NCBI GenBank assembly: GCA_963790475.1
Contig: CAWBOS010000011.1
Span: 96,001 to 160,000, forward strand
Reading direction: 5' to 3'
DNA length: 64,000 nt
Origin: an uncultured delta proteobacterium
GTDB taxonomy: Bacteria; Desulfobacterota; RBG-13-43-22
Shown here: piece by piece, positions 12,091 through 60,501 of the stretch
Layout: each line of letters starts with the position of its first letter
Position numbering within the stretch: the stretch's first letter is position 1
Notes under the pieces: generated by a model
What the model saw: the letters and a program-made list of their open reading frames with translations, nothing else
The model's database searches: none
What the model was told of the DNA's origin: nothing
Made by a program: the position numbers and the translations under genes

Positions 12091-14721
12091 ATGAATCAAA
12101 AATATATTGCTCAAGCCATTCTTGATTCCCGTGCCCGTTTACTGGAAAAAACCAAGGGGCTTCCCGTCCTCCCTTTACGCACCGAGTCCGAGGAAGGGGG
12201 CTGCGGGGTTACCGGATTTGCCTGTAATATCCCAGTGGGCGGCCGCCACATTTTCGAACCTTCGGTTCAGATGCACAATCGCGGGAATGGAAAAGGGGGC
12301 GGCATCGCCGCCGTCGGCCTGGAGGCCGGTAAATTGGGGGTGGACCAATCCACTCTGGAAACTCATTTTCTGCTCCAGATTGCCTTGTTGGACCCAACGG
12401 TGTTAAAGGAACTGGAAGATCGTTTTGTCCGCCCTTTTTTTAAAATTGCCCAGGAGGATTTTGCCCCGACCGTTGACGATTATCGGGATATCCCCGGTTT
12501 GGAAATTGAACCCCCTCAGGTTAAACGCTATTTTGTCCAGGTCCAACCAAAAGTTCTGGCCTCTTTTCAACAGGAAAGAAATCTGAATAAATTATCCCCT
12601 GAAAAGGCGGCTGAAGAATTCATCTATCAAAACACCTTCCGGTTGAACCAAAACTATTACAGTTCGTTGGGGGAGAAAAAGGCCTTTGTCCTCTCCCACG
12701 GCCGCAATATGATGATCCTGAAGATCGTTGGGTATGCCGAGAAGGTGGCCCAGTATTATCAGTTGGATGATTTCAAGGCCCATGTCTGGATCGCCCATCA
12801 GCGCTATCCAACCAAGGGGCGGGTCTGGCATCCTGGAGGGGCCCATCCCTTTATCGGGCTGGATGAAGCCCTGGTTCATAACGGAGATTTCGCCAATTAT
12901 TATTCGGTCAGCGAATACCTGTATCAGCGAAATGTGGTTCCTCTGTTTTTGACCGATACCGAGGTCTCCGTTCAGGTCTTTGATCTCCTTAACCGGGTCT
13001 ATGGTTATCCTTTGGAATACATCATCGAATCCCTGGCCCCGACCACGGAAATGGATTTTGATAAGCTGCCCCTGGAAAAACAAAGGATTTACCGCCAGAT
13101 CCAGACCACCCAGATCCACGGCTCCCCGGACGGGCCGTGGTTTTTCATCATTGCCCGTAATCTCACCGGGCAAAAAACCTATCAATTGATCGGCATCACC
13201 GATACGGCCATGCTCCGGCCGCAGGTCTTCGCCCTGCAAAAAGGAGAAGTGGAGATCGGACTGATCTGCTCGGAAAAACAGGCCATCGATGCGACCTTGC
13301 AGTCCCTGGCCAGGGAAGATTCCCGGTTCGGCACCGTTGCCGATCGCTATTGGAACGCCAGGGGCGGGAGCTATACCGACGGCGGGGCCTTTATTTTTTC
13401 GGTCAAGGAATCGGAGGCCGGAAATTGGAACCTGAGCTGTCAGGATAAATTCGGCCGGCCCATTGATATCCCGGCCGAGCGGACCCCCCATGATTTTCGC
13501 CTTGAACTTAAGACCGCGCCTTTAAAGACGGCGATGGCTAAAAAGGTCAGGCAGGCCTTGGAATCAGGGAAGATCGTTCCCTTATTTTCTTCCTTAAGGG
13601 GTTCCATCGAAAAATGGGACTATGCCCAGCTCAACAGTTTTTTAGACCACCTGCTGGTTTTGGCCCAAGAGGAAAAGTTAAAGGAAGGGGTAATCGAATT
13701 GTTGACCTTGCTTCTGGATCGCAGGTATCCCACAGGGACGAAACGCCGCCGATCCCTTCTGCAATTGGTCACCCGGTCCCTTGAAAAAATATTTAACGAG
13801 ATTCCTCTTATAAACCAGACCAAAGGAACCTCTTTTCTCAGGATCGATTATGCCCATCGTCAAACGCTTCGTGCCCCGGAAGACGGGGAAAAGGTCCTGG
13901 TCATCAATGCCGGTCAGTTTCAGCCGGAAGGGGAAGACTGCGATGCCCGCCTGGTGGTCAAGGCTTATGAGCTGGGTTGGAAAAGGTTTATCGGCTATGG
14001 GTACCGGGGGCAACGATTTCTGGGTTGCGGCCTGGGGCCGGACACCAAAGGGGTCCGCATCGATGCTTATGGGAGTAGCGGGGATTACCTGGCTTCCGGG
14101 ATCGATGGATTGGAAATTTTGGTTCATGGCAATGCCCAGGACCAATTGGGGCAGATTCTCAAAAGCGGCAAACTGGTGGTCCACGGCGATGTGGGGCAGA
14201 CCTTTTTGTACGGGGCCAAAGGCGGTGAGGTTTATGTGTTGGGTAATGCCGCCGGACGCCCGCTGATTAATGCAGTGGGCAGGCCCAAGGTAGTCATTAA
14301 TGGTACGGCCCTGGATTTTCTGGCCGAATCCTTCATGGCCGGAGACCCCCATAACGGGGGAGGATTTGTCATAGTCAACGGCCTGATTGTTGATACCCAG
14401 GGGAATATAATTCCTCAGGAAACACCTTATCCCGGATCGAACCTCTTTTCTCTGGCCTCCGGCGGGGCCATTTATATCCGGGACCCCCATCAAAAAATAG
14501 TGGCCGAACAGCTTAACGGCGGGGAGATCGTCCCCTTCTCCGAGGAAGATTGGCAACTGATCCTGCCTTATCTGAAGGAGAACGAACGCCTCTTCGGCAT
14601 TTCCATCGAGGATCACCTGTTGACTGTCGATGGTCAAAGAAGCACGCCTTCAAAAGTCTTTCGCACCGTTCAACCGGCTAAACCAACGGTCCTGGCCGAC
14701 GGGTTGGATGAATGGGAATAA
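12091..14721 (+). CDS. Glutamate synthase amidotransferase domain fused to GXGXG domain (GltB1+GltB3-like)
   Basis: EGG|CGVTG Ntn nucleophile, HQRYPT, AHPF, VHNGD, TDTEV; C-terminal GXGXG repeats. Confidence 0.85.
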   Translation: MNQKYIAQAILDSRARLLEKTKGLPVLPLRTESEEGGCGVTGFACNIPVGGRHIFEPSVQMHNRGNGKGGGIAAVGLEAGKLGVDQSTLETHFLLQIALLDPTVLKELEDRFVRPFFKIAQEDFAPTVDDYRDIPGLEIEPPQVKRYFVQVQPKVLASFQQERNLNKLSPEKAAEEFIYQNTFRLNQNYYSSLGEKKAFVLSHGRNMMILKIVGYAEKVAQYYQLDDFKAHVWIAHQRYPTKGRVWHPGGAHPFIGLDEALVHNGDFANYYSVSEYLYQRNVVPLFLTDTEVSVQVFDLLNRVYGYPLEYIIESLAPTTEMDFDKLPLEKQRIYRQIQTTQIHGSPDGPWFFIIARNLTGQKTYQLIGITDTAMLRPQVFALQKGEVEIGLICSEKQAIDATLQSLAREDSRFGTVADRYWNARGGSYTDGGAFIFSVKESEAGNWNLSCQDKFGRPIDIPAERTPHDFRLELKTAPLKTAMAKKVRQALESGKIVPLFSSLRGSIEKWDYAQLNSFLDHLLVLAQEEKLKEGVIELLTLLLDRRYPTGTKRRRSLLQLVTRSLEKIFNEIPLINQTKGTSFLRIDYAHRQTLRAPEDGEKVLVINAGQFQPEGEDCDARLVVKAYELGWKRFIGYGYRGQRFLGCGLGPDTKGVRIDAYGSSGDYLASGIDGLEILVHGNAQDQLGQILKSGKLVVHGDVGQTFLYGAKGGEVYVLGNAAGRPLINAVGRPKVVINGTALDFLAESFMAGDPHNGGGFVIVNGLIVDTQGNIIPQETPYPGSNLFSLASGGAIYIRDPHQKIVAEQLNGGEIVPFSEEDWQLILPYLKENERLFGISIEDHLLTVDGQRSTPSKVFRTVQPAKPTVLADGLDEWE

Positions 14722-40814: not shown

Positions 40815-41217
40815 TTATGTGTTGGACAGTTTTGCCCTCATAGGCTATCTCGAAAATGAACCATTCGCCCAAGAAATAGAAGACCTTCTCCATCAGGCCG
40901 AGAAGGGAGTTTGCCGTCTCTATTTACATGCCCTTCATCTGGGAGAGGTTTACTATATTACCCTTCGAGAACAGGGTCAAGATGTGGCGGATCTGGCTTA
41001 TGCCCGGATCAAGAGATTTCCAATAAAATTCGTCGAAACTATAAATGAGGAACTTCTCTTGACCGCAGCGGCACTTAAAGCCATCTATCCGATCTCTTAT
41101 GCGGATTCCTTTGCAGCGGCCCTGGCCAAGGTTAACAACGCCTTGCTCCTAACTGGAGACCCCGAATTTCGTACCCTTGAAGAAGATAGAATCCTGGAAA
41201 TCACTTGGCTCACATAA
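40798..41217 (+). CDS. VapC/PIN toxin
   Basis: YVLDSFA, LGEVYY, ISYADSFAAA, LLTGDPEF. Confidence 0.88.
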   Translation: MAKGTNYVLDSFALIGYLENEPFAQEIEDLLHQAEKGVCRLYLHALHLGEVYYITLREQGQDVADLAYARIKRFPIKFVETINEELLLTAAALKAIYPISYADSFAAALAKVNNALLLTGDPEFRTLEEDRILEITWLT

Positions 41218-41648
41218 CTAGGATGTTGCCCCAGGCTGTGCCTGTTTTCATTGCGGTCTCTCTCGACCGCGCTGAAAAATTCAATTCTTCTCCGTGTCCT
41301 CCGCGATCTCGAGCGTAGCGGACGAGAGGCAATAACTGAATGGAGTGGACAACGTCCCGCGATTCATAAAACAGAAATGAGAATCGAACTTCCAATTATT
41401 CCTGTAGAGTTTTGAACCCCATTTTTATCTCAAAAAAAAGCGCCTGTCGGGCCGGCCGATGGGCGCTCTGCTGCATAGGGTGTTCGGAGAGACTATGTCT
41501 TTGCCTTTTTCGTCTTTCTGAAAAGGACCAGACTAAAAAGCCCTGCATAATCAGGGGCCGCGATGTTTGCAACGCCTCCAGTTAAGACAATGCCGATGTC
41601 CCACGTGTCTCAATCGTGGTCCACGTTCTGGCCCGGAGAGTGGTTATC

Positions 41649-41888
41649 CTACTTATCTTTACGTTGCTTCCCTTCCCTCTTGCCGGTCAGCATTAAGACA
41701 CCGCCTACAAGAAGGCCGATCGCGCCTGAGGCCAGACCCGGGTCGATCTCCGGAACGCAGCCACCACCACCATTTCCACCTCCGTTACCTCCGCCGTTGC
41801 CCCCTCCGTTACCTGCTAAGGCCAGCGGTACCACCACCATAAAAAGGATACAGACAACCACTGCCATAATTCTTAAGAAATTTTTCAT
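41649..41888 (-). CDS. Small Gly/Asn-rich VPEID-CTERM protein
   Basis: Signal peptide, (NGGG)x4, C-VPEIDPG, TM helix, basic tail; AAGGAGG RBS. Confidence 0.88.
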   Translation of the reverse strand: MKNFLRIMAVVVCILFMVVVPLALAGNGGGNGGGNGGGNGGGGCVPEIDPGLASGAIGLLVGGVLMLTGKREGKQRKDK

Positions 41889-42162
41889 TCTTCCCTCCTT
41901 TGACGGTTGTTGTTTGTTGATCATGAACTGCTATAACCATGAAAAGAATTTTATTGGCACGGATTTCACGGGTTGCCACGGTTAAAGGGCATTGGGTTTT
42001 CAGGAAATCTAACATCCGATTTCCCGACCACTTCCGTCCGCCCACCGGCTGAGGGATTTTTATTCATCAATCAGAGGCCTGATTGATGGATAATCAATTT
42101 GTCTTACCGTGTCATCCGTGTCCATCCGTGCCAAAAAATATTCAGGTGGTAAAAAAAAGCAA

Positions 42163-43934
42163 TTAACTCCACAAGTTCCAATTTCCCAAAATTAGAACAT
42201 CCGCGGCAATAAGTGCGTTAGTGGTGGCGTGGGCCATGACGGCATCAGCCATCCTCCCGCGCCGGACCATCGCCAAGGCATAGCACATACCGGCTATAGT
42301 TCCGGCCAGCCAGCGCCCATGCAGGGCCCCGAAAAGGACCGAGGAAACGAGAAACGAAAGCCAGGTAAACCTCACTGAAGAGAGTTGATCGAAGTCGGCC
42401 GAGATGAGCCGTCGGAGCAGGTAGCCGCGAAAGGCGAGTTCCTCGGCTATGGGCGTGGTCACTACAGAACCGGCCACACGGAACAATACCCAGGTCATTG
42501 CCAGGCCAACCGGCATCTCCCCCAGTCCTTTGGCCATGGAGGAGCCTGCGCCCGCTCTGCCTGTTACCTTTTCCAACCCTATCCAGATGGCGAAGACCAC
42601 CACGCCGATCGCGATTGCACCCCATGACCAGCTACCCGCCGGATTGCGCCACAAAGACCGTCGCCAGAAGAGCCAGATTACCGCCGCCGTTCCCAGCACA
42701 CGCGCCGGATACAGCCAGTCAAACCCGCTCGAAAAAAGGCCGGTTATCATGCTGAGGGCCAGCAAAGGCCATCAGGGGCGCCAGGTAGGCGATTGTCGGG
42801 TTGCCCTCCTGGCCCTTATCCTCGAAACCGGATTGGCTCGCAGCGAAAAGGGGCAGGCGCTGGGTCAGTGCCACCATACCTAAGGCGATTCCGATAAAGC
42901 CAAGCCAGCCAAGCTGGGAGTGAAAGCCTCCCATCGCAATCTGAGGGGAAACGTAAGTACCGACCAGGACCAGCAGGGCCATCCTTAGCGCGTTGATGAG
43001 CCAGATGGCGAGGGACAGCGCCGGGTAGAAGAAGGTAAGCCTGAGGAAACCTTAGTCTGCGCCAGAAAAGCCATAGGTAGACGCCTGCAAACAAGACCAT
43101 CAGGCCTATGCCCTCATATCCGGCACAGGCGGGGTAGATGCCCACGCTGAACTGCTTCGTGCCAAGCTCGTAATGAGCCGGTTGGCTGACGACGTCCTGC
43201 CCGAAGGCCGTAAGCAGCCAGCGCACCAGCAGGAACGTCGGCCCACGGAGCGGCCTCCAGGCCCTGCCGGCAAAGAACCCCCAGACCACGGATGCCGTTA
43301 CGATGATGAACCCGGCCGAGACGACAGAGACATTGGTGCGGATAAGGCGTATCCAGGCCCGCGCCGGCATTGCGGCCAGCAGCCAGAAAACACCCGTAGC
43401 CAAGCCGGCCGCGGCCCAGGTGAGAAACCAAAACAGGGGAGCAGTCGAAGAGGCCCCTTCACCTTCGAACACCCAAATGGTGAGCCAGAAGAACGTGGCG
43501 AAGCCACCTAAATGGGCCAGGACCATCAACCAGGATGCCAGCCCTGCCTCATGGAAGACCGAAAGCTCGCGCACTCTGCCGTAGGAACGCGCCCAGCCCA
43601 AGATCAAGGCGACCGCTAGAGAAGTAATAAAAATGGAAGGAAAGCCCTTAGTGTAAGTAAGGAGCCCAGTGGAAGGCGCCTCGATCCGGATGGCCAGCCA
43701 GGTCACTTCCCCCAAGGCAATTACTACCAACCCAGCCCATCGCATCAGGGGGGAGGTTATGATTCCACTATTCACAGTCTTCTTCGAGACCTTTGAAAAA
43801 CACCCCTTTTTGCCCAATCTCTGCGTCAGACTCAAATTTTAATCCTCGAAATACTAAATGTATTCCTGTGGTTAAAATTTTCGTCTTCCTTGACCTTGGA
43901 CAAAATTGAACATTTTTCAAAGGTCTCTCTTCAT
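42163..43934 (-). pseudogene. xrtE: Exosortase E/CAAX-protease fusion (VPEID-CTERM system), two frameshifts and a MITE at the start
   Basis: ACAGYEG, INALR, FHSQLGW, PIAEELAFRGYL, HATTN across three ORFs; shifts near 43012 and 42765. Confidence 0.85.
43786..43927. mobile_element. 142-bp MITE (family A) with 5-bp TSD TCTTC
   Basis: 15-bp TIRs; TCTTC at 43781-43785 and 43928-43932. Confidence 0.9.
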
Positions 43935-44132
43935 TGAATAAATGCTGGCAATGAAAAACCAGTCAGGTGCTTCGCGTGCCCTGTGCGAAGCCGGAGGTTG
44001 CCCTTGGGGAATATCGCCCAAGGGCAAATATCCCCATAACCCAGGTAATCAAACAACGGAGGAGGGAGCGGTTTAATAAAATTATTACCGATTTTGTCTT
44101 TGAGTGGAAATCGGGATCTTATGATTCAAGAC

Positions 44133-45047
44133 CTAACCCCGGACATTGTTGTAAACTGTCTTCACCGAAACTCCCAGCCGGTCTGCAATCTCATTTCTTT
44201 TAAATCCTCTGGCTATCAACTGCTCAATTAAGTATTTCCGGGCTTGCCGGCTTTCGGCCTGACCCAGGCGGCTTTTCCGGTTTAGGGTTTCAATCCTTCG
44301 AGATAATTCCTCGCTATCCAATAGGTCGATCCCCTTCGGGTTTCTCAACCGGCCCAGGGTGATTCCATTCCAAACGGTTGGAACCAACCTTTTCAGCTTT
44401 TCCTGCAGTCGGTTGATGGCCCCTTCCACCTCCAGGACTTCGTCTACTTTCAAGCCGGAAGCTTGCTGCAAGAGTAGCTTATAGGTCCGTCGGGCAGTGG
44501 CGTAATTGTCCGAAATCAACCCCAGGATAAACGAGCTGTCGACAAAAGAGTTGGCCGTCATCCTATCACTATACAATCGGTCGGAAGACCAGCGATAGGC
44601 ATCGGGGCTTGCGGCCAGGCCGGCTCGGACAGGGTTCAGATGAATATAAACGGAGGCGGCCAGCAGGTATTTCTCATCCATACAAACCGATTGTCGGTAG
44701 GGGCTCCCAAAAAGATGGCCTTTTCTTTCATATTTTCGGTTAAAGTATCGGGCATATCGGGAGAAGAGATCCCGCATGGCCCCGTAGAGGTTGTCCTGCT
44801 GGGGACTGATCAGTAGATGGACATGGTTGGGCATGAAGCAGAAGGCATAGAGGACGACCTCTGCCTGTTGAACCCAGTCTTTCAGCCAGCCGAGCAGGAA
44901 CAGATAATCCTGATCCTCGACAAACAGCGGTTCCCGACCGGCAGCACGTTGGGTAATGTGGGAGACCAATTGGGCCTGGTTGAGTTTCCGGGTGGACCGG
45001 AAGAAGCGACTCTTCCCACTCCGTTTACTAATATCCTCCAAAGCCAT
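44133..45047 (-). CDS. RAYT/TnpA(REP)-like Y1 HUH endonuclease with C-terminal HTH
   Basis: HITQR...LF, YAFCFMPNHVHLL, RKGHLF, YIHLNPVRAGL, YRWSS; EIADRLGVSVKTVY HTH. Confidence 0.88.
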   Translation of the reverse strand: MALEDISKRSGKSRFFRSTRKLNQAQLVSHITQRAAGREPLFVEDQDYLFLLGWLKDWVQQAEVVLYAFCFMPNHVHLLISPQQDNLYGAMRDLFSRYARYFNRKYERKGHLFGSPYRQSVCMDEKYLLAASVYIHLNPVRAGLAASPDAYRWSSDRLYSDRMTANSFVDSSFILGLISDNYATARRTYKLLLQQASGLKVDEVLEVEGAINRLQEKLKRLVPTVWNGITLGRLRNPKGIDLLDSEELSRRIETLNRKSRLGQAESRQARKYLIEQLIARGFKRNEIADRLGVSVKTVYNNVRG

Positions 45048-45501
45048 ACTGGATACCCCTTTCCTGAATCTAACACCGGGTGTTAATCAGGTGAGATTAA
45101 CTATGGGCGGATCGGCCTTCCGGATTAGGTCCTTGAGAACCTATAGCCAGACTTCCTTTCTTAATTTACCATAAATTGCTTTAAGAAAAAATGGGAAGGA
45201 TCAGGCTTGCCGGAGAGGGATGACGGCCTTTTTACCGATTTTATCTTTGAGTAAAAATCGGTAAAAACCCTAAGGTTCGCTGCCTGAGTTGGAATAAGCC
45301 GCGGATAGAGCGAATTTACCGATTTTGTCTTTGAGTGGAAATCGGTAAAGCAACTTAAAGCCAATGTTCCCTGCTTCTCTTTTTCTTGACGACAGGATGG
45401 AAACTCTGATAGTGGCATCATCTGGCTCTATCGTGAATCCCATTACCGATTTTGTCCTTGAGTGCAATTCGGTAAAGATGATGTCATGGTGAAGATATAA
45501 A

Positions 45502-46322
45502 TCATGAGGGTATTCATTTTTTTGTCTGAACTGCCTTTTTTTGCAAGGATTTCTATGGCCCAAGGTATTTCTGCCATTGCTTATAAAGATAACCAATATA
45601 AATCATCGAGATATATTATTTCCTTTGTTCTTGGCTTAAAAATTGCTTCATAATATATTATAAAATAAGGTCGTTTTCCGATAAGATAGTTATAATAGGT
45701 CGTGAAGCTCAACCGAGGTGCCTAAATGCCAACTTCCACCATGAACAAAATTAGGAATTAAGGGAAGGAAGCTTTGATAGGGCCATCATCAGGCTTCAGC
45801 GCAAATGATTTTGCCGATTTCGTCTTTGAGTGGAAATCGGTAGAACCAATGTTTTCTAATTTTTGGCACGGATTACACGGATGGCCACGGATGGCGGGCA
45901 TAGAGCATAAAGCATAAGGCCAAGAAACCGGCATTGGGGTAATCAGGAAATCGGAGAGCCGATTTCTTGAGGACTGCCGTCCGCCTGGGCGGAAAGAGAA
46001 TGCAAAAGACTAGGGCTTCTCTTTGGCACGGATTGCACGGATGACACGGATGTAATATTTATTCTCCTGCCGATAAAACGCAGGGGAATAAATCATTCTG
46101 CCCACCGGGGGCGGAACAAAAGAAAACAAAAAGACAAAGGTTTTTACCGATTTCGTCCTTGAGTGGAAATCGGTAAAGGGATAAGTGAATCTTGAAGGAC
46201 AACTTAGGTGCTAAAATGTCAATTCCCAATTTAGAAATAGTCAAAAAGCCAGGGCAAGTAATCCCAGTTTTAATCGGCTTGCTCTTTTTGCTTGCCTTCT
46301 CCCCAGCCCTTTATGCCGCAAC
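45502..46322 (+). repeat. 821-bp direct repeat, copy 1
   Basis: Identical by eye to 47642-48462 (offset 2140). Confidence 0.9.
45632..45647 (+). promoter_or_regulatory. Putative sigma-54 promoter (copy 1)
   Basis: TGGCTTAAAAATTGCT, GG-N10-GC; AT-rich IHF-like tract upstream. Confidence 0.55.
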
Positions 46323-46507
46323 TTATTACGTCGATGCAACAAGCGGGCAGGACAACAATGAGGGCCTTTCGGACGCCACCCCCTGGAAAACCATCGCTAA
46401 AGTTAATGCTTCAAGGTTTGCACCGGGAGATCAGATACTCTTCAAACGGGGGAGACTTGGAGGGAAACTTTGATAGTGCCATCATTTGTCTCCGGCGCAA
46501 ATCATTT
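46216..46507 (+). pseudogene. Signal peptide + N-terminus of a secreted right-handed beta-helix-type protein (fragment 1)
   Basis: ATYYVDATSGQDNNEGLSDATPWKTIAKVN...GDQILFKRG then frameshifted ETWRETLIVPS; ends at a palindrome. Confidence 0.75.
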
Positions 46508-46686
46508 TACTGATTTCGTCCTTGAGTGGTAATCAGGAATCTTATAATTCAAGGCCCATTTCCCACAAAGGTGCAAACCTAAAAAATCGGGCCGCCGGTA
46601 ACCAGAATGCGTTTGTTTTGATGCAGGTTCAACTGTCTGCCTCCGGGAATGTGGTTAATTAGGAAGATCGGCTGTCCTGAGCGATT

Positions 46687-47013
46687 TTAGGCGGGATCTG
46701 GCTCTACTGCAGCAATCCCGGAAAGAATGACCGGCTTCCGGTCGGGGAATTCGGCGACGAGGGACAGGTTGCCTCCCATGGCCTCAACGCTCTTTCTCAT
46801 GGTCGAAAGCAGAAGGTCACTTCGCTTTTCGAGACGGGATACGCCGTCCTGGCTGATGCCGAGGGCTTTTGCCAGGTGTACCTGAGTGATCTTACGCGCT
46901 CGTCGAAGTTCCTGAAGGGTCATCTCCTCCCCAATGAGAGCAGTGGCGCGGGCCTCGATCTTCTTCCGACGCCTGGCGCTGAGGCTTTTCATCTTCTGGT
47001 TTATGGTCTTCAT
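46687..47013 (-). CDS. XRE-HTH antitoxin (HigA-like)
   Basis: TLQELRRARKITQ..LAKALGISQDGVSRLEKRSDLLLST. Confidence 0.88.
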   Translation of the reverse strand: MKTINQKMKSLSARRRKKIEARATALIGEEMTLQELRRARKITQVHLAKALGISQDGVSRLEKRSDLLLSTMRKSVEAMGGNLSLVAEFPDRKPVILSGIAAVEPDPA

Positions 47014-47378
47014 GGTTTATGCTTCCTTTCCTTAAAACGGGCCAGGTGGCTGTCAAATCGTTTGTCGGCTTTTGCGATGAGATTTCTGTAGAATCTTTTT
47101 TCGCTGACCCCTGATTTATCCCCGGCGACAAGCAGAATAGCTTGCCTTCTCGGATCGAACGCGAAGGCAACCCGCCATACCCCATCAGCGGCGGCGAAAC
47201 GCAGTTCCTTCATGTTCGCATGGCGGGAATCGTTTAGGGTATCGCCGCGGGGGCGGCCCAGCTGAGGCCCAAAATGTCCGAGTAATTTGGCATGAGCCAG
47301 CAATTCATCCTGCACTTCTTCCGGCAAGGCATCAAACTCCGGTTCAAAATCCTCATGAAACAGAATTCTCCAATTCAT
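47010..47378 (-). CDS. RelE/HigB-family toxin
   Basis: GPQLGRP..DTL..SRHANMKELR...WRVAFAFDP.R.AILLVAGDK. Confidence 0.88.
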   Translation of the reverse strand: MNWRILFHEDFEPEFDALPEEVQDELLAHAKLLGHFGPQLGRPRGDTLNDSRHANMKELRFAAADGVWRVAFAFDPRRQAILLVAGDKSGVSEKRFYRNLIAKADKRFDSHLARFKERKHKP

Positions 47379-47641
47379 GGTAATATTATGTCTCTTAATA
47401 CATATGTTGTCAAGTACATATTCGGGACTCCCCTAAACCCGAAATCCGATTGATTTCCAATGTTATCCGCTCCGGCCGCCGTTTGCCCTCCCTGGAACCA
47501 GCAATCTTCTGATTGAACGGTCCATCTTTCAGAACAAATTCCAACGCTTATGAATGGTGCCTATCAATCCAAGACTACTATGGTGTCACCGGAATTACTA
47601 GTAATTTTACCGGTTTCGTCCTTGAGTGAAAATCAGTAGAT

Positions 47642-48462
47642 TCATGAGGGTATTCATTTTTTTGTCTGAACTGCCTTTTTTTGCAAGGATTTCTATGGCC
47701 CAAGGTATTTCTGCCATTGCTTATAAAGATAACCAATATAAATCATCGAGATATATTATTTCCTTTGTTCTTGGCTTAAAAATTGCTTCATAATATATTA
47801 TAAAATAAGGTCGTTTTCCGATAAGATAGTTATAATAGGTCGTGAAGCTCAACCGAGGTGCCTAAATGCCAACTTCCACCATGAACAAAATTAGGAATTA
47901 AGGGAAGGAAGCTTTGATAGGGCCATCATCAGGCTTCAGCGCAAATGATTTTGCCGATTTCGTCTTTGAGTGGAAATCGGTAGAACCAATGTTTTCTAAT
48001 TTTTGGCACGGATTACACGGATGGCCACGGATGGCGGGCATAGAGCATAAAGCATAAGGCCAAGAAACCGGCATTGGGGTAATCAGGAAATCGGAGAGCC
48101 GATTTCTTGAGGACTGCCGTCCGCCTGGGCGGAAAGAGAATGCAAAAGACTAGGGCTTCTCTTTGGCACGGATTGCACGGATGACACGGATGTAATATTT
48201 ATTCTCCTGCCGATAAAACGCAGGGGAATAAATCATTCTGCCCACCGGGGGCGGAACAAAAGAAAACAAAAAGACAAAGGTTTTTACCGATTTCGTCCTT
48301 GAGTGGAAATCGGTAAAGGGATAAGTGAATCTTGAAGGACAACTTAGGTGCTAAAATGTCAATTCCCAATTTAGAAATAGTCAAAAAGCCAGGGCAAGTA
48401 ATCCCAGTTTTAATCGGCTTGCTCTTTTTGCTTGCCTTCTCCCCAGCCCTTTATGCCGCAAC
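47642..48462 (+). repeat. 821-bp direct repeat, copy 2 (includes sigma-54 motif at 47772-47787)
   Basis: Matches 45502-46322. Confidence 0.9.
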
Positions 48463-48648
48463 CTACTACGTCTCTGCCATAAATGGGCAAGATACCAATG
48501 ATGGCCTGTCGCAGACTACCCCCTGGAAAACCATCGCCAAAGTGAATGGGTCAACTTTCCAGCCGAGTGATCAGATTCTGTTCAAGGGGTGGTAGATTTG
48601 AAGGAAAATTTCGGTAGAGCCGTCATCCCGCTCCAGGGCAAATGATTT
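48356..48648 (+). pseudogene. Signal peptide + beta-helix-type N-terminus (fragment 2)
   Basis: ATYYVSAINGQDTNDGLSQTTPWKTIAKVN...DQILFK then stop; ends at a palindrome. Confidence 0.75.
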
Positions 48649-48832
48649 TACCGATTTTGTCCTTGAGTGGAAATCGGTAAAGCAACTTGGTGAAGATATA
48701 AATCATGAGGGTATTCATTTTTTTGTCTGAACTGCCTTTTTTTGCAGGGATTTCCACGACCCAAAGTCTTTCTGCCCTTGGTTATAAAGATAACCAATAT
48801 AAATCATTTAGATATATTATTTCCTTGGGCCT

Positions 48833-48847
48833 TGGCATCAAATTTGC
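48833..48847 (+). promoter_or_regulatory. Putative sigma-54 promoter (diverged copy 3) upstream of the glycoside hydrolase
   Basis: TGGCATCAAATTTGC, GG-N10-GC conserved despite flank divergence. Confidence 0.6.
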
Positions 48848-49316
48848 GTAATAATTAGTAAAATTAGTTTTCCCCCCGATGAGATAGTTATAATTAGGTC
48901 GTGAAGCTCCACTTGGGATGGAGGAGAGTTGGAGGGAAACTTTGATTTTGCTACACTCTGCCTCCAACACAAATAAACTTACCGATTTCGTCCTTGAGTG
49001 AAAATCGGTAAAGGTACCTAAAGGCTAATTTCCCCCATGAAAAAAATTAGAAATTCTGGTCAAGTAATCATAGTTTTAATTGGCTTACTCTTTTTTCTTG
49101 CCTTCTTTGCCGTCGAACCATTACCTTGGGCCGCAACTAATACCGCGCAAAACATACTCACACGTTCAACTGATGATATTGTTCCCCCAACTTTCTTTGG
49201 GATGCACATTCATAATGCTACTACAAACACGCCTTGGCCCGCTATTCCATTCGGCATGTTGCGGTTGTGGGATGCAGATGTCATCTGGGCCACTCTGGAA
49301 TCGAATAAGGGGGAAT

Positions 49317-50578
49317 TGATCTGGTCAAGTAAAAATAGACACCTGGTTAAGCAATTTTTTCCAAAGCAAGGTTCATTTCAAAATCATTCGGAGCCATATA
49401 GCCCAGGGAGGAATGAAGTCGGTAGCTGTTGTAATACATCTCGATGTAATCAACAACCTCCTGACGGGCTTCTTCCCGGGTGGGATATGCTTGGTCCTCC
49501 CATTGGTCATATTTTAGGGTATGGAAGAAACTTTCTACTACGGCGTTATCATAGCAGTTCCCTTTGTCGCTCATACTGGGGATCATGCCGAAGGTTTTTA
49601 ACTGCTGTTGGTAATCAGAGGCAGCATATTGGCTACCCCGATCGGAATGATGGATTAACCCCTTGGCCGGTTTTCGACGCCAATAAGCCATACGGAGGGC
49701 CTCCAGGACCAAGGAAGTCTTGAGATGGCTGTCCAAGGCCCAACCGACCACCTTGCGCGAATACAGGTCGATAATGACGGCCAGATACAGCCATCCTTCC
49801 CGGGTCCAGAGATAGGTGATGTCCCCACACCAGATAGAATCCGGTTGATCTACCTGAAACTGCTGGTTCAACCGATTGGGAGCCACAGGCAACTGATGAT
49901 GACTATCGGTCGTTTTCTTAAATTTCTTAGGCCATTTGACCGAAAGACCCGCTTTCTTCATCAGACTCCTGGCTCGAAAGCGGCCAATGTTGTATCCCTC
50001 ATCCCGGAGGCCTTTCGACATCCGGCGGGATCCATAGGTCCTTCTGGATCTTTGATGAATATGGCGGACCAGAGATAACAATTTAAAATCCTTATCAACT
50101 TGCTTATGGCTTTTTTTCAAATACTTATAATATCCGCTCCGGCTAACTTCCATAACCCGGCACAAAACGGTTATGGGATAGGCCTTCTGTTGCTGCCGGA
50201 CAAAGTCGTATCTTACCTCGACTCTTTGGCAAAGAAGGCCGTGGCCTTTTTTAAGATGTCACGCTCCATCCTAAGCCTTTGGTTTTCTTTGCGGAGTCTC
50301 TGTAGTTCTTCTTTTTCCGGGGTCAAACGGCCCTTGCCGGGAAAGGCGTTTCCCCCCTCCAAGGCCATTTCTTTTTTCCAACGATTCAATACACCGGGGT
50401 GGATGCCTAAATTCCGGGCAGCCTCGCTGGTCTTGTACCCCTGTTCGGTTACCAAGCGCACCGCATCCATTTTAAACTCGGGGGTATACTTCTTTTTCTC
50501 TTTGGTCATGGGTCACCTCCAAAAGCTCTTTTATTTTATCACGCTTTTCTTGGTGTCCACAATTACTATACCAGTTCA
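49317..50578 (-). mobile_element. IS3-family element, 1262 bp, TSD AAT
   Basis: TG...CA ends with imperfect IRs; AAT at 49314-49316 and 50579-50581. Confidence 0.92.
49347..50509 (-). CDS. IS3 transposase OrfA (50213-50509) / OrfB (49347-50165), -1 frameshift fusion
   Basis: WCGDITY, HSDRGSQY, DNAVVESFF; A6G motif near end of orfA. Confidence 0.92.
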
Positions 50579-52003
50579 AATGGCATTTTGAAAAATTGGA
50601 TACAAATGTCGACTTAGCCGAAGCCCATAACGTTGAAGTCCTCTTGACACTTGGCCAATCTCCTGCTTGGGCTTCGGCACGACCTTCAGAACCTTCTCCT
50701 TATAAGCCTGGAGCTGCAGCCGAACCGGCAAACATTGAAGATTGGAGAAATTACGTCCGATCAGTTGCTACACGCTATAAAGGGCGCATTCATTATTACG
50801 AAATTTGGAATGAACCTAATCTATCCGAATTCTATACTGGAACAGTAGACCAAATGGTCACACTGGCACGGGAAGCGTACGCAATTCTTAAGGAAGTAGA
50901 TCCCACAGTAAAAGTCGTCTCTCCTTCCGTCACCATGGCCGCGGGAATTCCGTGGCTGGGGCAATATTTCATTAAGGGGGGTGCTACCTATGCAGACATT
51001 ATTGGCTATCACTTTTACGTGTTTCCCGACCTACCCGAAGCAATGGTGCCGGTCATTAACAATGTTAGACAGACTATGACAAAATATGGTATTAGCAATA
51101 AACCTCTATGGGATACTGAGGCAGGTTGGAGCAGACCCAAGCTTTTTTCTTCGGATAGTGAGGCATCTGCGTACGTAGCCAGGTCATACATCCTTAACTG
51201 GGCTACCGGGGTAGATCGGTTATTTTGGTATGCATGGGATAACCATTGGTGGGTGACTTTGGAAATGACCCAGAGTGACAGTACAACTCTGAAGCCTGCT
51301 GCTATTGCCTACAGAGAGGTCCAGAAGTGGATCGTTGGTGCCAAGTTACTGTCATGTGACTTAGACAGCCAAGGAACCTGGCTTGCCCAGATAGCACGAG
51401 ACAACGGTTACAAAGGTTTCATCATCTGGAACCCAGATAAGACTATAAACTTTGCAATCCCAACAGAATACAACGTTAGACAGATGAAGGACTTGGCAGG
51501 TACTATAACCAATATCACGGGAGCGAGTCTATTGAGCGTAGGCATGGAACCCATTTTGCTGGAAAATGCTTCAACTAAGCCGCCCCGGAACGTACATTTG
51601 ATCTATTGACGGATCATAAAATTAATCTTATCATGTTAGCAACTCATAAATCAAGCGAAATGTTCTTATGAATTATAGGAGTTAGGTCTCTGCTATAGTA
51701 AAATGTGTTGCCACGCGCATCGTGCAGAGGAGACAGTTAGTATAGGGATTGGCTACAACACGCGTCTTGGTCTCTATGGCGACTATAGGGTTCGATATCA
51801 TCGTCCCGAAAACGCTGGTAGCGAGTAGGCTCATGAACCTATGGGTTAGAAGAAGAGAAAGTCCTATTGCGGGGGACCCGCATGATGGGTCGACGAGGTG
51901 GGGTCTGGAAACTAACACAGTTGAGATCGTGTGACATTCATATATAATAGCAAGAGGGTGAGACAACCGAGAATACAAACCTCAACCAAAACTGACGCGC
52001 TAA

Positions 52004-53986
52004 CCCATCTTCCGCAGTTTGGAGAAAAAATCAAGAAAAACGTGATGAATTTTCAGGAATTGTTAAATGATTTCAAGTCCTGATCTTTGAAAATTGGATG
52101 TAGTGAAGACCACCCCCTTGCCAGGTGCTGTGGGAACGGAGATAATGGGGTTATGTATCTCCGGCGTGCAACCAAAAAGAAAGGTGGAGCGGAGTACGAG
52201 AGCTGGCTTTTAGTTGAGTCGGTCCGTACTGCCCGAGGGCCCCGTCAGCGAGTAGTGGCGACGATAGGGAAACTTCCTGGCCTTGATCGGGAAGAGCGGA
52301 TAGGTTGGGAGGAGATCGGACGGATTCTTTCCGGAAAGCCTCTACCTGGACCTGAACTGTTTGAGCAGGGGGAAGACCCCCCATCTTGGGCCACGGTCAA
52401 TATCCATGGCGTAAGCGTCGAGCGACTCAGAGGCTTCGGCGATGTCTATTTGGGGTTGCTTTTGTGGAACAAACTGGGGCTTGCCAGGTTCTGCCGAGAT
52501 CATATTCCTTCCAACCGGGAAGAGATTCCTTGGTCGATCATGGCGTCTATTTTAGTTCTTGGACGCTTTTGCGCCCCATCGTCGGAATTACAGATGGCCG
52601 AGTTTTGGTATGGCCAGACGGCCTTAGACGATCTGCTGGGAGTGGCCGACTATAAGATCAATGAGGATCGGCTTTATCGTGCCCTGGATGCCTTGCTTCC
52701 CCACAAGGATGCCTTAAGCCGTCACCTTCAGGAGCGTTATGGGGAACTGTTCGGCAGTAGCTTTGATTTTTTGTTTTATGACATAACCTCCACCTATTTT
52801 GAGGGGACCGCCAAGGGCAATGCCCAGGCCAAGAGGGGTTACAGCCGGGACAGTCGTCCAGATTGTCCCCAGGTCTGCATCGGCCTGGTGGCCACCCGAG
52901 AGGGCTTTCCCATAGCCTTTGAGGTTTTTGACGGCAATCGACCGGATGTCACGACGACCCAAGAGATGGTTCAGATGATGGAGGCCAAATACGGCCAAGC
53001 CAACCGGATCTGGGTTATGGATCGCGGCATGGTGAGTGAGGAGAATCTGGAGTTTATGCGCAAAGTCGGTGCCCGCTATTTGGTCGGCACCCCAAAAGTG
53101 ATGCTGAAGAAGTTTGAGCAGCAGCTTTTCGAACAGAACTGGGAAGCGGTCCAACCTGGTGTTGAGGTCAAGCTCTGTTGCTCGCCGGAAGGAACGGATG
53201 AAATCTTTGTCCTGTGCCGGTCTCAAGGCCGGAAGGAGAAAGAAAACGCCATTCTAAACCACTTTTTGACCCGACTGGAAAGCCAACTGGATCACCTGGC
53301 CCGCCAGGCCGAAACCGGCAAGCTCCGAGACAAGCAGAAAGTCGAGCGGAGAATAGGGCGACTGCTGGAACAAAATAAACGTGCGGCCTCGTTGTTCAAT
53401 ATTACAGTCATAGAGACCGGTACCGGAAAAGACGCACCGCTTTCCCTAGAAGTCAAGAAGAACGAACAACGGCAACAGTGGGCCTTGGAGACCGGCGGTA
53501 GCTACATCCTGCGCACCAACTGGACCGAAAGTGACCCGAAAGTCCTATGGAATACCTACATCCAACTGACGGAAGTGGAAGATTCATTCCGTACCGAGAA
53601 ACATGATCTGGGAATGCGACCGATCTTCCATCAAAAACAGGAACGGACCCAGGCTCATATCCTGGTCTGCTTCTTGGCGCTGACTATGTGGCGAACGCTC
53701 CAGCAATGGATGAAAGCCTCGGGACTCGGTACCGCCCCAAGAAAGCTGTTGGAGGAGTTGCGGGAATTGAAATCTTTGGATGTGCTACTACCGGCGCGGG
53801 AGAGAACCCTCCGGCTCAGAATGGTGGCTACTCCCTCAAAGGAACTCAAAGTGCTGCTTCAGAGATTGAAAATTCTGCTCCCCAACAAACCAAAAATTAT
53901 TGAAAATGTAGTGAAGAAAATGCCCTAATTCTTGTCGTAACTATTTGATATCGCGTCTTCCATGCTTTCTAACTGCGGAAGATGGG
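52004..53986 (+). mobile_element. IS1634-family element
   Basis: Perfect 16-bp TIR CCCATCTTCCGCAGTT; no clear TSD. Confidence 0.88.
52153..53928 (+). CDS. IS1634-family DDE transposase
   Basis: YDITSTYFEG, GYSRDSRPD, VMDRGM, VEDSFR..K..L.MRPIFH. Confidence 0.92.
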   Translation: MYLRRATKKKGGAEYESWLLVESVRTARGPRQRVVATIGKLPGLDREERIGWEEIGRILSGKPLPGPELFEQGEDPPSWATVNIHGVSVERLRGFGDVYLGLLLWNKLGLARFCRDHIPSNREEIPWSIMASILVLGRFCAPSSELQMAEFWYGQTALDDLLGVADYKINEDRLYRALDALLPHKDALSRHLQERYGELFGSSFDFLFYDITSTYFEGTAKGNAQAKRGYSRDSRPDCPQVCIGLVATREGFPIAFEVFDGNRPDVTTTQEMVQMMEAKYGQANRIWVMDRGMVSEENLEFMRKVGARYLVGTPKVMLKKFEQQLFEQNWEAVQPGVEVKLCCSPEGTDEIFVLCRSQGRKEKENAILNHFLTRLESQLDHLARQAETGKLRDKQKVERRIGRLLEQNKRAASLFNITVIETGTGKDAPLSLEVKKNEQRQQWALETGGSYILRTNWTESDPKVLWNTYIQLTEVEDSFRTEKHDLGMRPIFHQKQERTQAHILVCFLALTMWRTLQQWMKASGLGTAPRKLLEELRELKSLDVLLPARERTLRLRMVATPSKELKVLLQRLKILLPNKPKIIENVVKKMP

Positions 53987-59239: not shown

Positions 59240-60501
59240 TGAAATGGTAAAGTAATTGTGGACACCAAGAAAAGCGTGATAAAATAAAAGAGCTTTTGGA
59301 GGTGACCCATGATCAAAGAGAAAAAGAAGTATACCCCCGAGTTTAAGATGGATGCCGTACGTTTGGTAACCGAGCAGGGGTACAAAACGACAGAAGCCGC
59401 CCGGAATTTAGGAATCCATCCCGGTGTATTGAACCGCTGGAAACAACAATTGGCCTCTGATGGGAAGAATGCCTTCCCCGGCAAGGGGCATCTGATCCCG
59501 GAAAAGGAAGAACTGCAGCGACTCCGGAAGGAAAACCAGCGGCTGAGAATGGAGCGTGACATCTTAAAAAAGGCCACGGCCTTCTTTGCCAAAGAGTCGA
59601 GGTAAGATACGACTTTGTCCGGCAGCAACAGAAGGCCTATCCCGTAACCGTTTTGTGCCGGGTTATGGAAGTCAGCCGGAGTGGATATTATAAGTTTTTG
59701 AAAAAAAGCCATAAGCAAGTTGATAAGGATTTTAAATTGTTATCCCTGGTTCGCCATATCCATCAAAAATATCGAGGGACCTATGGTTCCCGCCGAATGT
59801 CCAAAGAGCTTCGAGCCAGGGGATACGATGTGGGGCGTTCCCGGGCCGGGAGTCTAATGAAGAAAGCCGGTTTGGAAGTGAACCGTCCCAAGAAATTCAA
59901 AAGAACGACCGATAGTCGTCATCATCTGCCAGTGGCCCCCAATTTGGTGAACCAGCAGTTCCAGGTCGATCAACCGGATTCTATCTGGTGTGGCGACATC
60001 ACCTATCTCTGGACCCTGGAGGGATGGTTGTATCTGGCTGTCATTATTGACCTGTATTCACGCAAAGTAGTCGGTTGGGCCTTGGATAGTCATTTGAAGA
60101 CGACCTTGGTTCTGGAGGCCCTCCGCATGGCTTATTGGCGTCGAAAACCGGCCAAAGGGTTAATCCATCATTCCGATCGGGGCAGCCAATATGCTGCCTA
60201 TGAATACCAACAACAATTAAAAACCTTCGGCATGATCCCCAGTATGAGCCGAAAAGGGGACTGTTATGATAATGCCGTGGTAGAAAGTTTTTTTCACACC
60301 TTAAAAAATGAACAGTTGGGGGATCAGGTCTATCCAACCCGTGAAGAAGCCCGTCGGGAAGTTATCGACTATATCGAGATGTTTTACAACAGCTACCGGC
60401 TCCATTCGTCCCTGGGTTACCTGGCCCCTAATGATTTTGAACTGACCTTTGTTTCGAAAAAAATTGCTTAACCCAGTGTCCATTTTTACTTGACCAGATC
60501 A
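59240..60501 (+). mobile_element. IS3-family element, 1262 bp, TSD CCT
   Basis: TG...CA ends; CCT at 59237-59239 and 60502-60504; diverged isoform of 49317-50578. Confidence 0.92.
59309..60471 (+). CDS. IS3 transposase OrfA (59309-59605) / OrfB (59653-60471)
   Basis: DDE motifs; AAAAAAG at 59566-59572. Confidence 0.92.

Follow-up and report, generated by a model that had tools for sequence, protein, structure and literature searches.

Which process lines up a dozen DNA hairpins in one orientation around and beside a single nuclease gene, and what becomes of the DNA between them? The question is raised by a 64,000-nucleotide stretch, hereafter the window, from an uncultured delta proteobacterium of the Desulfobacterota (GenBank assembly GCA_963790475.1, contig CAWBOS010000011.1, positions 96,001 to 160,000), in which a gene for a Y1 HUH (histidine-hydrophobic residue-histidine) nuclease is accompanied by 12 direct copies of a 33-nt hairpin. 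An original prediction, made from the window sequence, took the array for an undescribed cassette system in which the nuclease shuffles promoter and export-signal modules of near-constant length. Our results suggest that the locus is probably REPtron-like, that is, composed of a single-copy Y1 HUH nuclease of the kind of TnpA_REP, the tyrosine transposase associated with repetitive extragenic palindromic (REP) sequences (REP-associated tyrosine transposase, RAYT), and of its cognate 33-nt hairpin.

The nuclease and its hairpins in the source genome

The nuclease gene (44133-45047, minus strand) is intact and codes for 304 amino acids, as indicated by the open reading frame (ORF) list, Pfam, NCBIfam and a fold match. 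Its HUH motif is formed by H75 and H77 (NHVH) and its tyrosine is Y134 (YIHLNP), which is followed by the motif YRWSS. Pfam assigned it to Y1_Tnp (E 4.8e-10, 40.1 bits against a cut-off of 23), and residues 268-302 match the helix-turn-helix (HTH) domain HTH_23 with an E-value of 2.6e-5 and a score of 24.3 bits, slightly below the gathering score of 24.6; PF13384 is precomputed on many of its homologues. NHVH, the tyrosine of YIHLNP and YRWSS are invariant in all 20 aligned homologues, in which the HTH is also conserved. When an AlphaFold model of the protein (pLDDT 70.3, pTM 0.65) was compared with known structures using Foldseek, the best match was 4er8_A, E. coli TnpA_REP bound to REP (E 1.8e-5, probability 1.0; PDB 4ER8, Messing, 2012), followed by 2ec2, 2f4f, 2xo6 and 2vhg, the TnpA proteins of IS200, IS608 and ISDra2. 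A PDB sequence search with the family profile returned no TnpA match, just an HTH repeat protein. The motif YIHLNP carries the Y---NP signature of class 2 TnpA_REP/RAYT proteins, and NHVH, YIHLNP and YRWSS together are the key motifs of subclass 2.1 (RAYT group 1). With 304 amino acids the protein is longer than the subclass 2.1 median of 238 amino acids given in the part of Quentin (2018, PMC6006769) available to us. Judged by its motifs and domain layout, the nuclease can be classed as a RAYT-like Y1 HUH enzyme with a C-terminal HTH that resembles subclass 2.1, and the Y1_Tnp and HTH_23 matches, the invariant motifs and the TnpA_REP fold match all back the original prediction on this point.

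The source genome (G000) contains one copy of this nuclease. Four further proteins match it with 24-33% identity; for three of these E is <= 6.2e-22, and the fourth match is weak (8.1e-6). No hairpins of the nuclease's kind were found within 8 kb of these paralogue-like matches. A paralogue with 31% identity (L016; G000:C6, around 806051-806593) has a layout like that of the TIRtrons, with 39-nt inverted repeats at L016:1050-1088 and 2100-2138 that are 1011 nt apart. The source genome therefore holds both layouts, a hairpin-flanked nuclease and a paralogue flanked by terminal inverted repeats (TIRs).

The 12 hairpin copies extend from 44085 to 49011 and all have the same orientation. On the plus strand the unit reads TTACCGATTTYGTCYTTGAGTGGAAATCGGTAA, a near-palindrome with a 10-11-bp stem, an 11-13-nt loop and an AT-rich stem base (TTAC...GTAA). 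The count, orientation and coordinates agree with the original prediction, and the unit is read here as 33 nt rather than 31 bp. The units start at 44085, 45232, 45316, 45443, 45811, 46144, 46507, 47607, 47951, 48284, 48648 and 48979, giving start-to-start spacings of 1147, 84, 127, 368, 333, 363, 1100, 344, 333, 364 and 331 nt, of which those from the fourth copy onwards reproduce the earlier values exactly. As had also been noted, the first two copies flank the nuclease gene: hp1 (44085-44117) lies 15 nt past its stop codon (35.0 bits; dG -4.6, z -3.0), and hp2 (45232-45264; 42.4 bits) lies on its other side. The remaining copies are hp3 (45316-45348), hp4 (45443-45475), hp5 (45811-45843), hp6 (46144-46176; 47.2 bits), hp7 (46507-46539), hp8 (47607-47639), hp9 (47951-47983), hp10 (48284-48316), hp11 (48648-48680) and hp12 (48979-49011). 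In the sense of the nuclease all of them are on the minus strand. A possible degenerate thirteenth copy (45117-45150, minus strand; the reference copy of repeat family D6), about 70 nt upstream of the nuclease start, keeps the loop CTCAAGGAC on the nuclease-sense strand, has a different, weak stem and folds no better than shuffled sequence (z -0.48).

Folding as single-stranded DNA (ssDNA) was done on 10 of the 12 copies, including hp2 and omitting hp9 and hp10, which are identical to hp5 and hp6, respectively. Eight of the 10 reached a dG of -4.6 to -8.7 kcal/mol with z of -3.0 to -5.7 against shuffles; hp7 and hp8, which lie around a toxin-antitoxin (TA) pair, are degenerate (z -0.87 and +0.41). 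On the plus strand, hp4, 5, 7, 9, 11 and 12 have 60-75 nt more in common on their 5' side. Behind hp7 come 17 nt that match the flank of hp1, namely the 3' end of the nuclease gene, and the 3' flank of hp3 resembles the 5' untranslated region (5'UTR) after hp12, for which reason we take the hp3-hp4 interval to be a heavily deleted module of the S or glycoside hydrolase type described below. CRISPR arrays were ruled out by the spacings and the content, integron attC sites by the lack of an integrase, and intrinsic terminators by the lack of a T-run after the stem.

When the 6,340,213 bases of the source genome were searched with an IUPAC pattern allowing up to 3 mismatches, 12 of 12 matches fell in the nuclease locus, with none on the reverse strand, none elsewhere in the genome and none for a reversed control pattern. 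Loosening the pattern to 6 substitutions gained one unrelated match. A covariance model (R1), with which 150 of 5264 first-look candidates were scored in this genome and 150 candidates per genome in the others, recovered the 12 window copies on the minus strand at 31-47 bits and added one divergent solo copy (G000:C12:1297778) and one weak match (C11:175486). The solo hairpin (L116:3779-3811, G000:C12:1297778-1297810) has a C-type stem and scores 40.4 bits; it is far away from nuclease genes, in the intergenic gap that separates a short ORF from a PIN-like TA pair, and beside an IS4-like element. This element (L116:606-2447, G000:C12) is nearly identical to a gene for an IS4-like DDE transposase of 613 amino acids in the window (52087-53928).

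Pairing of nuclease and hairpin across the family

The nuclease has 2,672 database relatives at E <= 0.001, mostly of about 307 amino acids and many of them on short contigs. From a metagenome scan we collected 80 nuclease loci with 53-89% identity, in which a position-weight matrix (PWM) found 270 hairpins, compared with none in 200 kb of shuffled sequence. The nuclease sense strand carries 255 of these and the other strand 15, a count that is partly circular, as the PWM used for the orientation calls was derived from the same 80 loci. The position of the hairpin relative to the gene is nearly fixed: it was found no more than 45 nt past the nuclease stop in 65 of the 78 loci with enough sequence and no more than 300 nt upstream of the start in 63 of 64, and two of the 80 loci lack a hairpin altogether. 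The family consensus, TTACC[C/G]ATTTC-NGC-YCAAG-GCN-GTTTT[C/G]GGTAA, folds with a basal stem of 7 bp and a short apical stem, separated by a T-T internal loop and closed by a pentaloop; in the clade of the window the internal segment is paired in place of the T-T internal loop. Some copies have kept the T-rich arms and have the apical 11 nt inverted.

Among 148 distinct hairpins, the basal-stem pair 6-28 was C-G in 86 and G-C in 57. When mapped onto a quickly built tree of 70 nucleases, with SH-aLRT as its only support measure, this stem type requires 2 changes as opposed to 20.2 in shuffles, none of 500 of which was as low. The stem type is thus inherited together with the nuclease clade; kinship alone clusters such labels, so that the pattern is not proof of co-adaptation. 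With 80 loci, 270 hairpins and a stem type that tracks the tree, the expectation that homologous nucleases are accompanied by co-varying hairpin arrays is borne out. The 128 inter-hairpin spacings in the family are mostly short: 48 are below 70 nt, 37 at 70-150 nt and 14 at 150-300 nt, none falls at 300-400 nt, 13 are at 400-1000 nt and 16 are above 1000 nt. Tandem runs of the hairpin plus a 27-nt linker occur as well, for example in L064.

Of 401 genomes sampled from the phylum, 10 carry the nuclease (E <= 1e-70), and each of them gave a single match. A scan of genome contigs with the nuclease protein gave one locus, the same as that of G009. How far the hairpin has spread differs among these hosts. 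In the nuclease-bearing genomes G001, G007 and G009, which belong to the same genus as the source genome, and likewise in G094 and G088, the R1 matches are on the nuclease contig or on a few short contigs, and in G202 and G083 several additional contigs also have matches. In G114, at least 50 hairpin sites are distributed over at least 14 contigs. They often form doublets spaced by about 57 nt, and they lie in ordinary intergenic DNA by housekeeping genes as well as by TA and defence genes. The hairpin is therefore a REP-like repeat that is able to proliferate, and its confinement in the source genome is a state and not a rule. The predicted confinement near the nuclease holds for the source genome, where 12 of 13 copies are local, and fails in G114, and the same dispersal speaks against the view that the repeats serve only as cassette borders.

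In six distinct loci, the hairpin is interrupted by small foreign palindromic elements of 24-65 nt, in every case immediately behind CAAGG(C) or CAAAG(C), on the apical loop's 3' side. They are located at L079:1041-1080; L063:111-180 and 418-487; L064:2411-2467; L052:3330-3386 and about 7510; L051:2290-2354 and 3553-3617; and L126:734-803. The hairpin that is interrupted in L079 has an intact counterpart in the 99.3% identical L074, and one 65-nt element recurs at three places. The fixed insertion point suggests that the loop is exposed as ssDNA in vivo, and it is a candidate for the cleavage position.

Modules, cargo and rearrangements

What lies between the hairpins? After hp2, hp3 and hp4, the order in the window is P, hp5, C, hp6, S, hp7, the TA pair, hp8, P, hp9, C, hp10, S', hp11, P', hp12 and a gene for a glycoside hydrolase (GH) of the GH39-like type, and the repeat and ORF listings confirm the order of modules given in the original prediction. 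Module P (45476-45810, plus strand) is AT-rich and contains a sigma-54-like TGGC-N7-TTGC at 45632-45646, judged by eye; its only further copies by blast are at 47642-47950 and 48688-48912. The latter belongs to module P' (48681-48978, plus strand), which is 85% identical to P and has TGGC-N7-TTGC, again judged by eye, at 48833-48847. Module C (45844-46143, plus strand) contains two triple CACGGAT motifs and resembles the region upstream of the VPEID-CTERM substrate gene (41649-41924); about 28 further blast matches are all on the same contig, at C11:162-177 kb, past the window. Module S (46177-46506, plus strand) consists of a 5'UTR, a signal peptide and about 50 residues of a beta-helix or pectate-lyase-like N-terminus with PelN/LnbX N-terminal matches. 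Its reading frame (ORF 46192-46473) is truncated at the extended repeat, and no full-length paralogue of the S or S' product was found in the source genome. The TA pair (46687-47378, minus strand) comprises a Gp49/HigB-like toxin (47010-47378; 2.7e-21) and an HTH_3 antitoxin (46687-47013; 4.3e-6).

A second P-hp9-C-hp10-S' block (47640-48647, plus strand) is a duplicate of the first at +2140 nt and extends into the 5' part of S. The stretches 45502-45801 (D5) and 46206-46300 (D7) are 100% identical to their copies at 47642-47941 and 48346-48440. Of S and S', about 95 nt from 46206 (D7), which include the first 28 codons from the start to most of the signal peptide, are 100% identical and the rest diverges, so that S and S' are 85.5% identical overall. 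The identity of the duplication stops inside S. Because its right end is not at a hairpin, this recent duplication looks like the outcome of gene conversion or homologous recombination. Since the P-C-S block is duplicated, the window offers three independent module lengths (P 331-368, C 333 and S 363), and together with the empty 300-400-nt class among the 128 family spacings this speaks against the fixed module size of about 330-370 bp that had been proposed.

The GH39-like gene (49037-51609, plus strand), whose start codon is 25 nt downstream of hp12, is split by an IS3-family insertion sequence (IS) on the minus strand (49347-50509; orfB 49347-50165, orfA 50213-50509), and its 3' part is at 50596-51609. 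A second IS3-type orfB is found at 59653-60471. The array is flanked on one side by an exosortase/CAAX pair of the VPEID-CTERM type and on the other by WecG, GT2, GT1 and Wzy_C genes and further IS copies; it thus lies at the edge of a surface-polysaccharide locus. The VPEID-CTERM sorting system (41649-43835) includes an exosortase-like gene (42816-43835), a CAAX protease-related gene (42163-42765) and the substrate gene at 41649-41924, whose product of 91 amino acids is glycine-rich and ends with VPEIDP, a transmembrane stretch and a basic tail. The 30-nt motif TTTTGGCACGGATTRCACGGATGGACACGG, the triple CACGGAT, occurs in the window at 41954, 42124 (minus strand), 45863, 46023, 48003 and 48163 and beyond it at G000:C11:162453-176577; its 11-base core was counted 22 times in forward and once in reverse orientation over 40 kb of C11, with one more occurrence on C10. 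It is probably a regulatory site common to the gene cluster just past the window. Some of its copies precede CTCAAGAAATCGG, which is similar to the hairpin loop plus 3' arm. A palindromic element of 143 bp at 43783-43927, which is MITE-like, has the inverted ends GAGACCTTTGAAAAA.../...TTTTTCAAAGGTCTC and is unrelated to the hairpin family; it gave 69 blast hits over the contigs of the genome and has three copies on G001:C147.

Similar cargo recurs in relatives. Polysaccharide-biosynthesis genes (GT1, GT2, GT4, Bac_transf, Polysacc_synt_2, epimerases, Wzy_C, NTP_transf_5, VanZ and DegT) are present in 12 of 14 long metagenomic loci, and TA genes (PIN, MazE, HEPN/NTase, UPF0175, DUF433/DUF5615, MqsR, ParE, Fic and DUF4160/DUF2442) in 11-12 of the 14, which makes the TA cassette a recurrent content of such arrays, as suggested for the window. 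One TA pair per hairpin-to-hairpin interval was seen three times in L108, twice in L097, three times in G094 and once in the window. Gene fragments abut or overlap hairpins in L050 (a DegT piece), L076 (a GT1 piece) and G094 (an epimerase stub).

The arrays of relatives also differ by rearrangement, with breakpoints at or near hairpins, in line with the original prediction. As for REARRANGEMENTS between relatives, G009 and the window have in common the TA pair (95%), S together with its extended repeat (81%) and the nuclease gene's 3' half (94%). In G009 the order is TA, hairpin, C-like module, hairpin, S, hairpin and truncated nuclease, whereas in the window the TA pair comes next after S and hp7, and the intact nuclease is at another place. 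Where the two alignments overlap there is a hairpin, and the 17-nt relic of the nuclease end after hp7 fits an ancestral S-hairpin-nuclease junction. The G009 locus (L027, G009:C6) also has about 900 nt of GC-rich, structured-looking sequence from the hairpin at 13356-13388 to the TA pair, which has no counterpart in the window. In L042 and L066, which are about 97% identical, the hairpin-nuclease-hairpin unit is on opposite sides of the same 918-bp PIN TA cassette; compared with L042, L066 has an extra MazE cassette, and in L042 a hairpin and the first ~110 nt of VanZ are duplicated. Among L051, L052, L072, L075, L078, L082, L092 and L104, several segments of 300-1000 nt are upstream of the nuclease in one locus and downstream of it in another. 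These segments are 92-99% identical, apart from one with 82-84% identity to L104, and a 1-kb cassette begins right after a hairpin in three contexts (L051, L092 and L082). An empty-site comparison between G114 and G083 was too diverged, with one flank at 84% and no match in a second case, and the GC skew along contig C11 showed no trend that would place the array on the leading or lagging strand.

Known systems, rival explanations and significance

How does this locus relate to described systems? The E. coli-type TnpA_REP gene, the subject of work by Ton-Hoang in 2012, is reportedly flanked by REP sequences or by BIMEs (mosaic elements interspersed in bacterial genomes). In the available parts of two later papers, the E. 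coli type of REPtron is a TnpA_REP (RAYT) gene with flanking REP/BIME sequences (Corneloup, 2021, PMC8266576; Quentin, 2018, PMC6006769). The locus described here is similar: its Y1 HUH gene is present in one copy and codes for a protein with the RAYT fold; short cognate hairpins, which vary together with the enzyme and can spread through intergenic DNA, as in G114, lie on both sides of the gene; and the tandem runs of hairpin plus linker resemble BIMEs. It differs in that the hairpin lacks the GT[AG]G foot and has an AT-rich TTAC...GTAA stem base, is co-oriented (255 of 270) instead of forming inverted pairs, and is local in the source genome; the enzyme is twice as long with an added HTH and scores below the cut-off of the NCBIfam RAYT model. 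By its foot, its co-orientation and its 13 copies in the source genome, the repeat departs from canonical REPs, and a high copy number was seen in G114 only.

Subclass 2.1 corresponds to RAYT group 1 of Bertels, whose members are long, have an HTH tail, are common in delta-proteobacteria and are low in copy number, and the available text of Quentin (2018, PMC6006769) lists it as 'REP: no', states that automatic and manual searches found no REP-like sequences, and equates it with the TIR-flanked TIRYTs of Di Nocera (2013, PMC3733652). The hairpin finder of that study, as described in the same part of the text, demanded GC-rich stem bases (Quentin, 2018, PMC6006769), and a hairpin with the AT-rich base TTAC...GTAA would therefore have been missed. 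The nuclease of the window shares with subclass 2.1 the motifs NHVH, Y[IV]HLNP and SS, the C-terminal HTH_23-like domain, the low copy number and the delta-proteobacterial prevalence (Table 1 of Quentin, 2018, PMC6006769, as far as available). Whereas the subclass was published without REPs and with TIRs, a clear hairpin family is found here. In the accessible part of Di Nocera (2013, PMC3733652), many TIRtrons have the TIR consensus GGGGWSAS and self-complementary hairpin flanks are a minority case. GGGGWSAS is absent from both strands of 43501-45700, where the nuclease is flanked by self-complementary hairpins in place of TIRs. The arrangement is thus of the REPtron/TIRtron type, so that the system is not undescribed in kind as had been claimed, though its enzyme subclass has been published as free of REPs. 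We found no prior description of this hairpin family or of RAYT-linked TA-cassette arrays in the literature searched, a search that had most subscription journals outside its scope.

A subclass 2.1 TnpA_REP co-localises with prochlorosin (procA) clusters in marine picocyanobacteria, where diversifying recombination has been proposed; in a later note the authors reported strong evidence neither for causality nor against it (Laurenceau et al., bioRxiv 10.1101/2020.03.09.984088). Both cases combine the same enzyme subclass with repeated genes that have a conserved 5' leader and a variable downstream part, like S and S', and in both, the repeats are interspersed with truncated pieces of the C-terminal part of the nuclease gene, as in the flank of hp7. 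However, no repeated cognate hairpin family was reported there, and the cargo described here consists of TA pairs and glycan-locus fragments and not of peptide genes. This proposed link between subclass 2.1 TnpA_REP and prochlorosin diversification, which its authors now consider unproven, is the nearest conceptual precedent. Elements of the IS200/IS605 family, which have non-autonomous derivatives (PATEs), share with the locus the Y1 HUH core and the hairpins of one strand on both sides of the gene, and a single-stranded mechanism like theirs would explain the co-orientation. Unlike them, the nuclease occurs once per genome, its left and right hairpins are identical and not distinct, and it has an HTH extension, no TnpB and Y---NP rather than Y---Q. 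In integrons, too, a resident recombinase gene is accompanied by small cassettes, promoterless or with TA genes, that are separated by folded recombination sites of one orientation. Here, the sole recombinase-like gene in the array codes for an HUH nuclease and not for a tyrosine recombinase, the sites are 33 nt long without attC core sites, the boundaries lack precision and we identified no attI-like site.

Reasoning from E. coli TnpA_REP and the IS200/IS605 TnpA proteins, we propose that the nuclease binds to the hairpin folded on the strand of the same sense as its gene, while the DNA is single-stranded, for example at a replication fork, and that it might nick and rejoin DNA at the hairpin and thereby multiply hairpins nearby. 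The co-oriented copies could then act as breakpoints, through joints made by the nuclease or through ordinary homologous recombination, so that the intervening DNA, here one promoter and one regulatory segment, the 5' fragments of genes and a TA pair, would be duplicated, deleted and permuted. On this reading, a semi-selfish element resides in a polysaccharide locus that is variable and tolerant, and the array is mainly a by-product of this element and was not built for module swapping.

Dedicated module shuffling by the array is possible, and an integron-like cassette platform run by the HUH enzyme would have a segment between co-oriented hairpins leave or be copied as an ssDNA circle, by peel-and-paste or rolling-circle transfer, and reinsert at another hairpin, so that TA pairs would be captured and surface-glycan genes would be re-wired at their promoters and 5' ends, to the benefit of the host. 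The shared orientation of 255 of the 270 hairpins, the single TA pairs bounded by hairpins in L108, L097, L126 (three) and the window, the prevalence of polysaccharide clusters (12 of 14) and TA genes (11-12 of 14) in the long loci, the presence of the same cassette at different positions in relatives and the 5' gene fragments that follow hairpins (S, S' and the VanZ fragment in L042) would all be accounted for. Nevertheless, we consider this unlikely: REP-like elements enter between genes anyway, so that small operons come to look bracketed; cassette ends are often away from hairpins; the spacings are irregular and the commonest reflects tandem hairpins about 60 nt apart with nothing between them; the hairpins of G114 adjoin housekeeping genes; both hairpins around the TA pair of the window have decayed; and an IS has disrupted the GH gene that follows the array. 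That a clade of subclass 2.1, within the largest and least understood RAYT group, runs an ssDNA cassette system, with co-oriented 33-nt hairpins as origin and terminus for HUH-catalysed excision or copying, is likewise unlikely. If true, it would be the HUH counterpart of the integron, capturing, duplicating and permuting TA pairs, promoters and 5' gene ends within polysaccharide loci and diversifying surface-glycan clusters.

That the hairpin-nuclease-hairpin unit of about 1.15 kb is itself an autonomous, IS200-like mobile element, the extra hairpins being solo ends of local hops, is in our view quite improbable. The unit is differently placed against the same flanks in L042/L066 and in L051/L072/L075/L082/L092, its distribution over the phylum is patchy (10 of 401) and its hairpins are on one strand on both sides, like the ends of IS200/IS605, but each of the 10 nuclease-bearing genomes gave a single match, the source genome has no second copy (its four paralogue-like matches are 24-33% identical and without such hairpins nearby) and the orthologous context of TA pair, S and nuclease 3' half is kept across species in G009. 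We give even less credit to a regulatory role, in which the hairpins would be an operator for the HTH of the nuclease or a stem-loop in 5'UTR RNA and the nuclease domain would have no part in the array. It would suit the conserved HTH, a palindrome fit for a dimeric binder and the position of hp6 and hp12, 25-40 nt upstream of the start codons of S and GH within likely 5'UTRs. Yet the HUH and tyrosine residues are invariant throughout the family, no Rfam match was found in 41000-52000 (E <= 0.1), and the orientation of the neighbouring genes varies, being on the strand opposite to the nuclease in the window and on the same strand in L042; the tandem runs at about 60 nt and the genome-wide spread are also hard to explain in this way.

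The REPtron-like reading, which we prefer, has several observations against it. The NCBIfam model REP_Tyr_transpos (NF047646) gives the nuclease 67.6 bits, under its cut-off of 80, the strand bias of the hairpins is subject to the circularity of the PWM, and covariation in a near-palindrome fits a dimer site on double-stranded DNA as well as an ssDNA hairpin. The right end of the recent duplication in the window falls inside S, no hairpin marks the left end of the L042/L066 cassette, and distances of 145 and 178 nt separate the ends of the window's TA block from hp7 and hp8. Such boundaries away from hairpins point to homologous recombination rather than to site-specific cutting. A general rule of a hairpin moving with its downstream segment was dropped, as the flank polarity was 11 versus 12 of 392 pairs, and in the public Logan contigs the best set (X1, with 0.61 of words) consisted of short unitigs that end at hairpins. 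The joints in the sets X2 and X3 have sides of less than 50 nt with 90-95% likeness and come from relatives.

Taken together, we describe a hairpin family for a clade of an enzyme group that, to our knowledge, had no known DNA partner and no known role. In the parts of the two surveys available to us, RAYT group 1 is described as the largest RAYT group (Bertels, 2017, PMC5581495) and subclass 2.1 as second in size among the TnpA_Y1 subclasses, being present in 14.9% of sampled strains (Quentin, 2018, PMC6006769). This clade now has a sharply defined 33-nt hairpin partner that is fixed in its position relative to the gene. Natural variants are at hand, with two stem types, paired or T-T-mismatched internal loops and hosts in which the hairpin is local or dispersed, and the biochemistry, namely the strand bound, the position of the cut and the role of the HTH, is directly testable. 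Polysaccharide clusters with TA pairs between hairpins provide a concrete lead on how variable loci are reshuffled.

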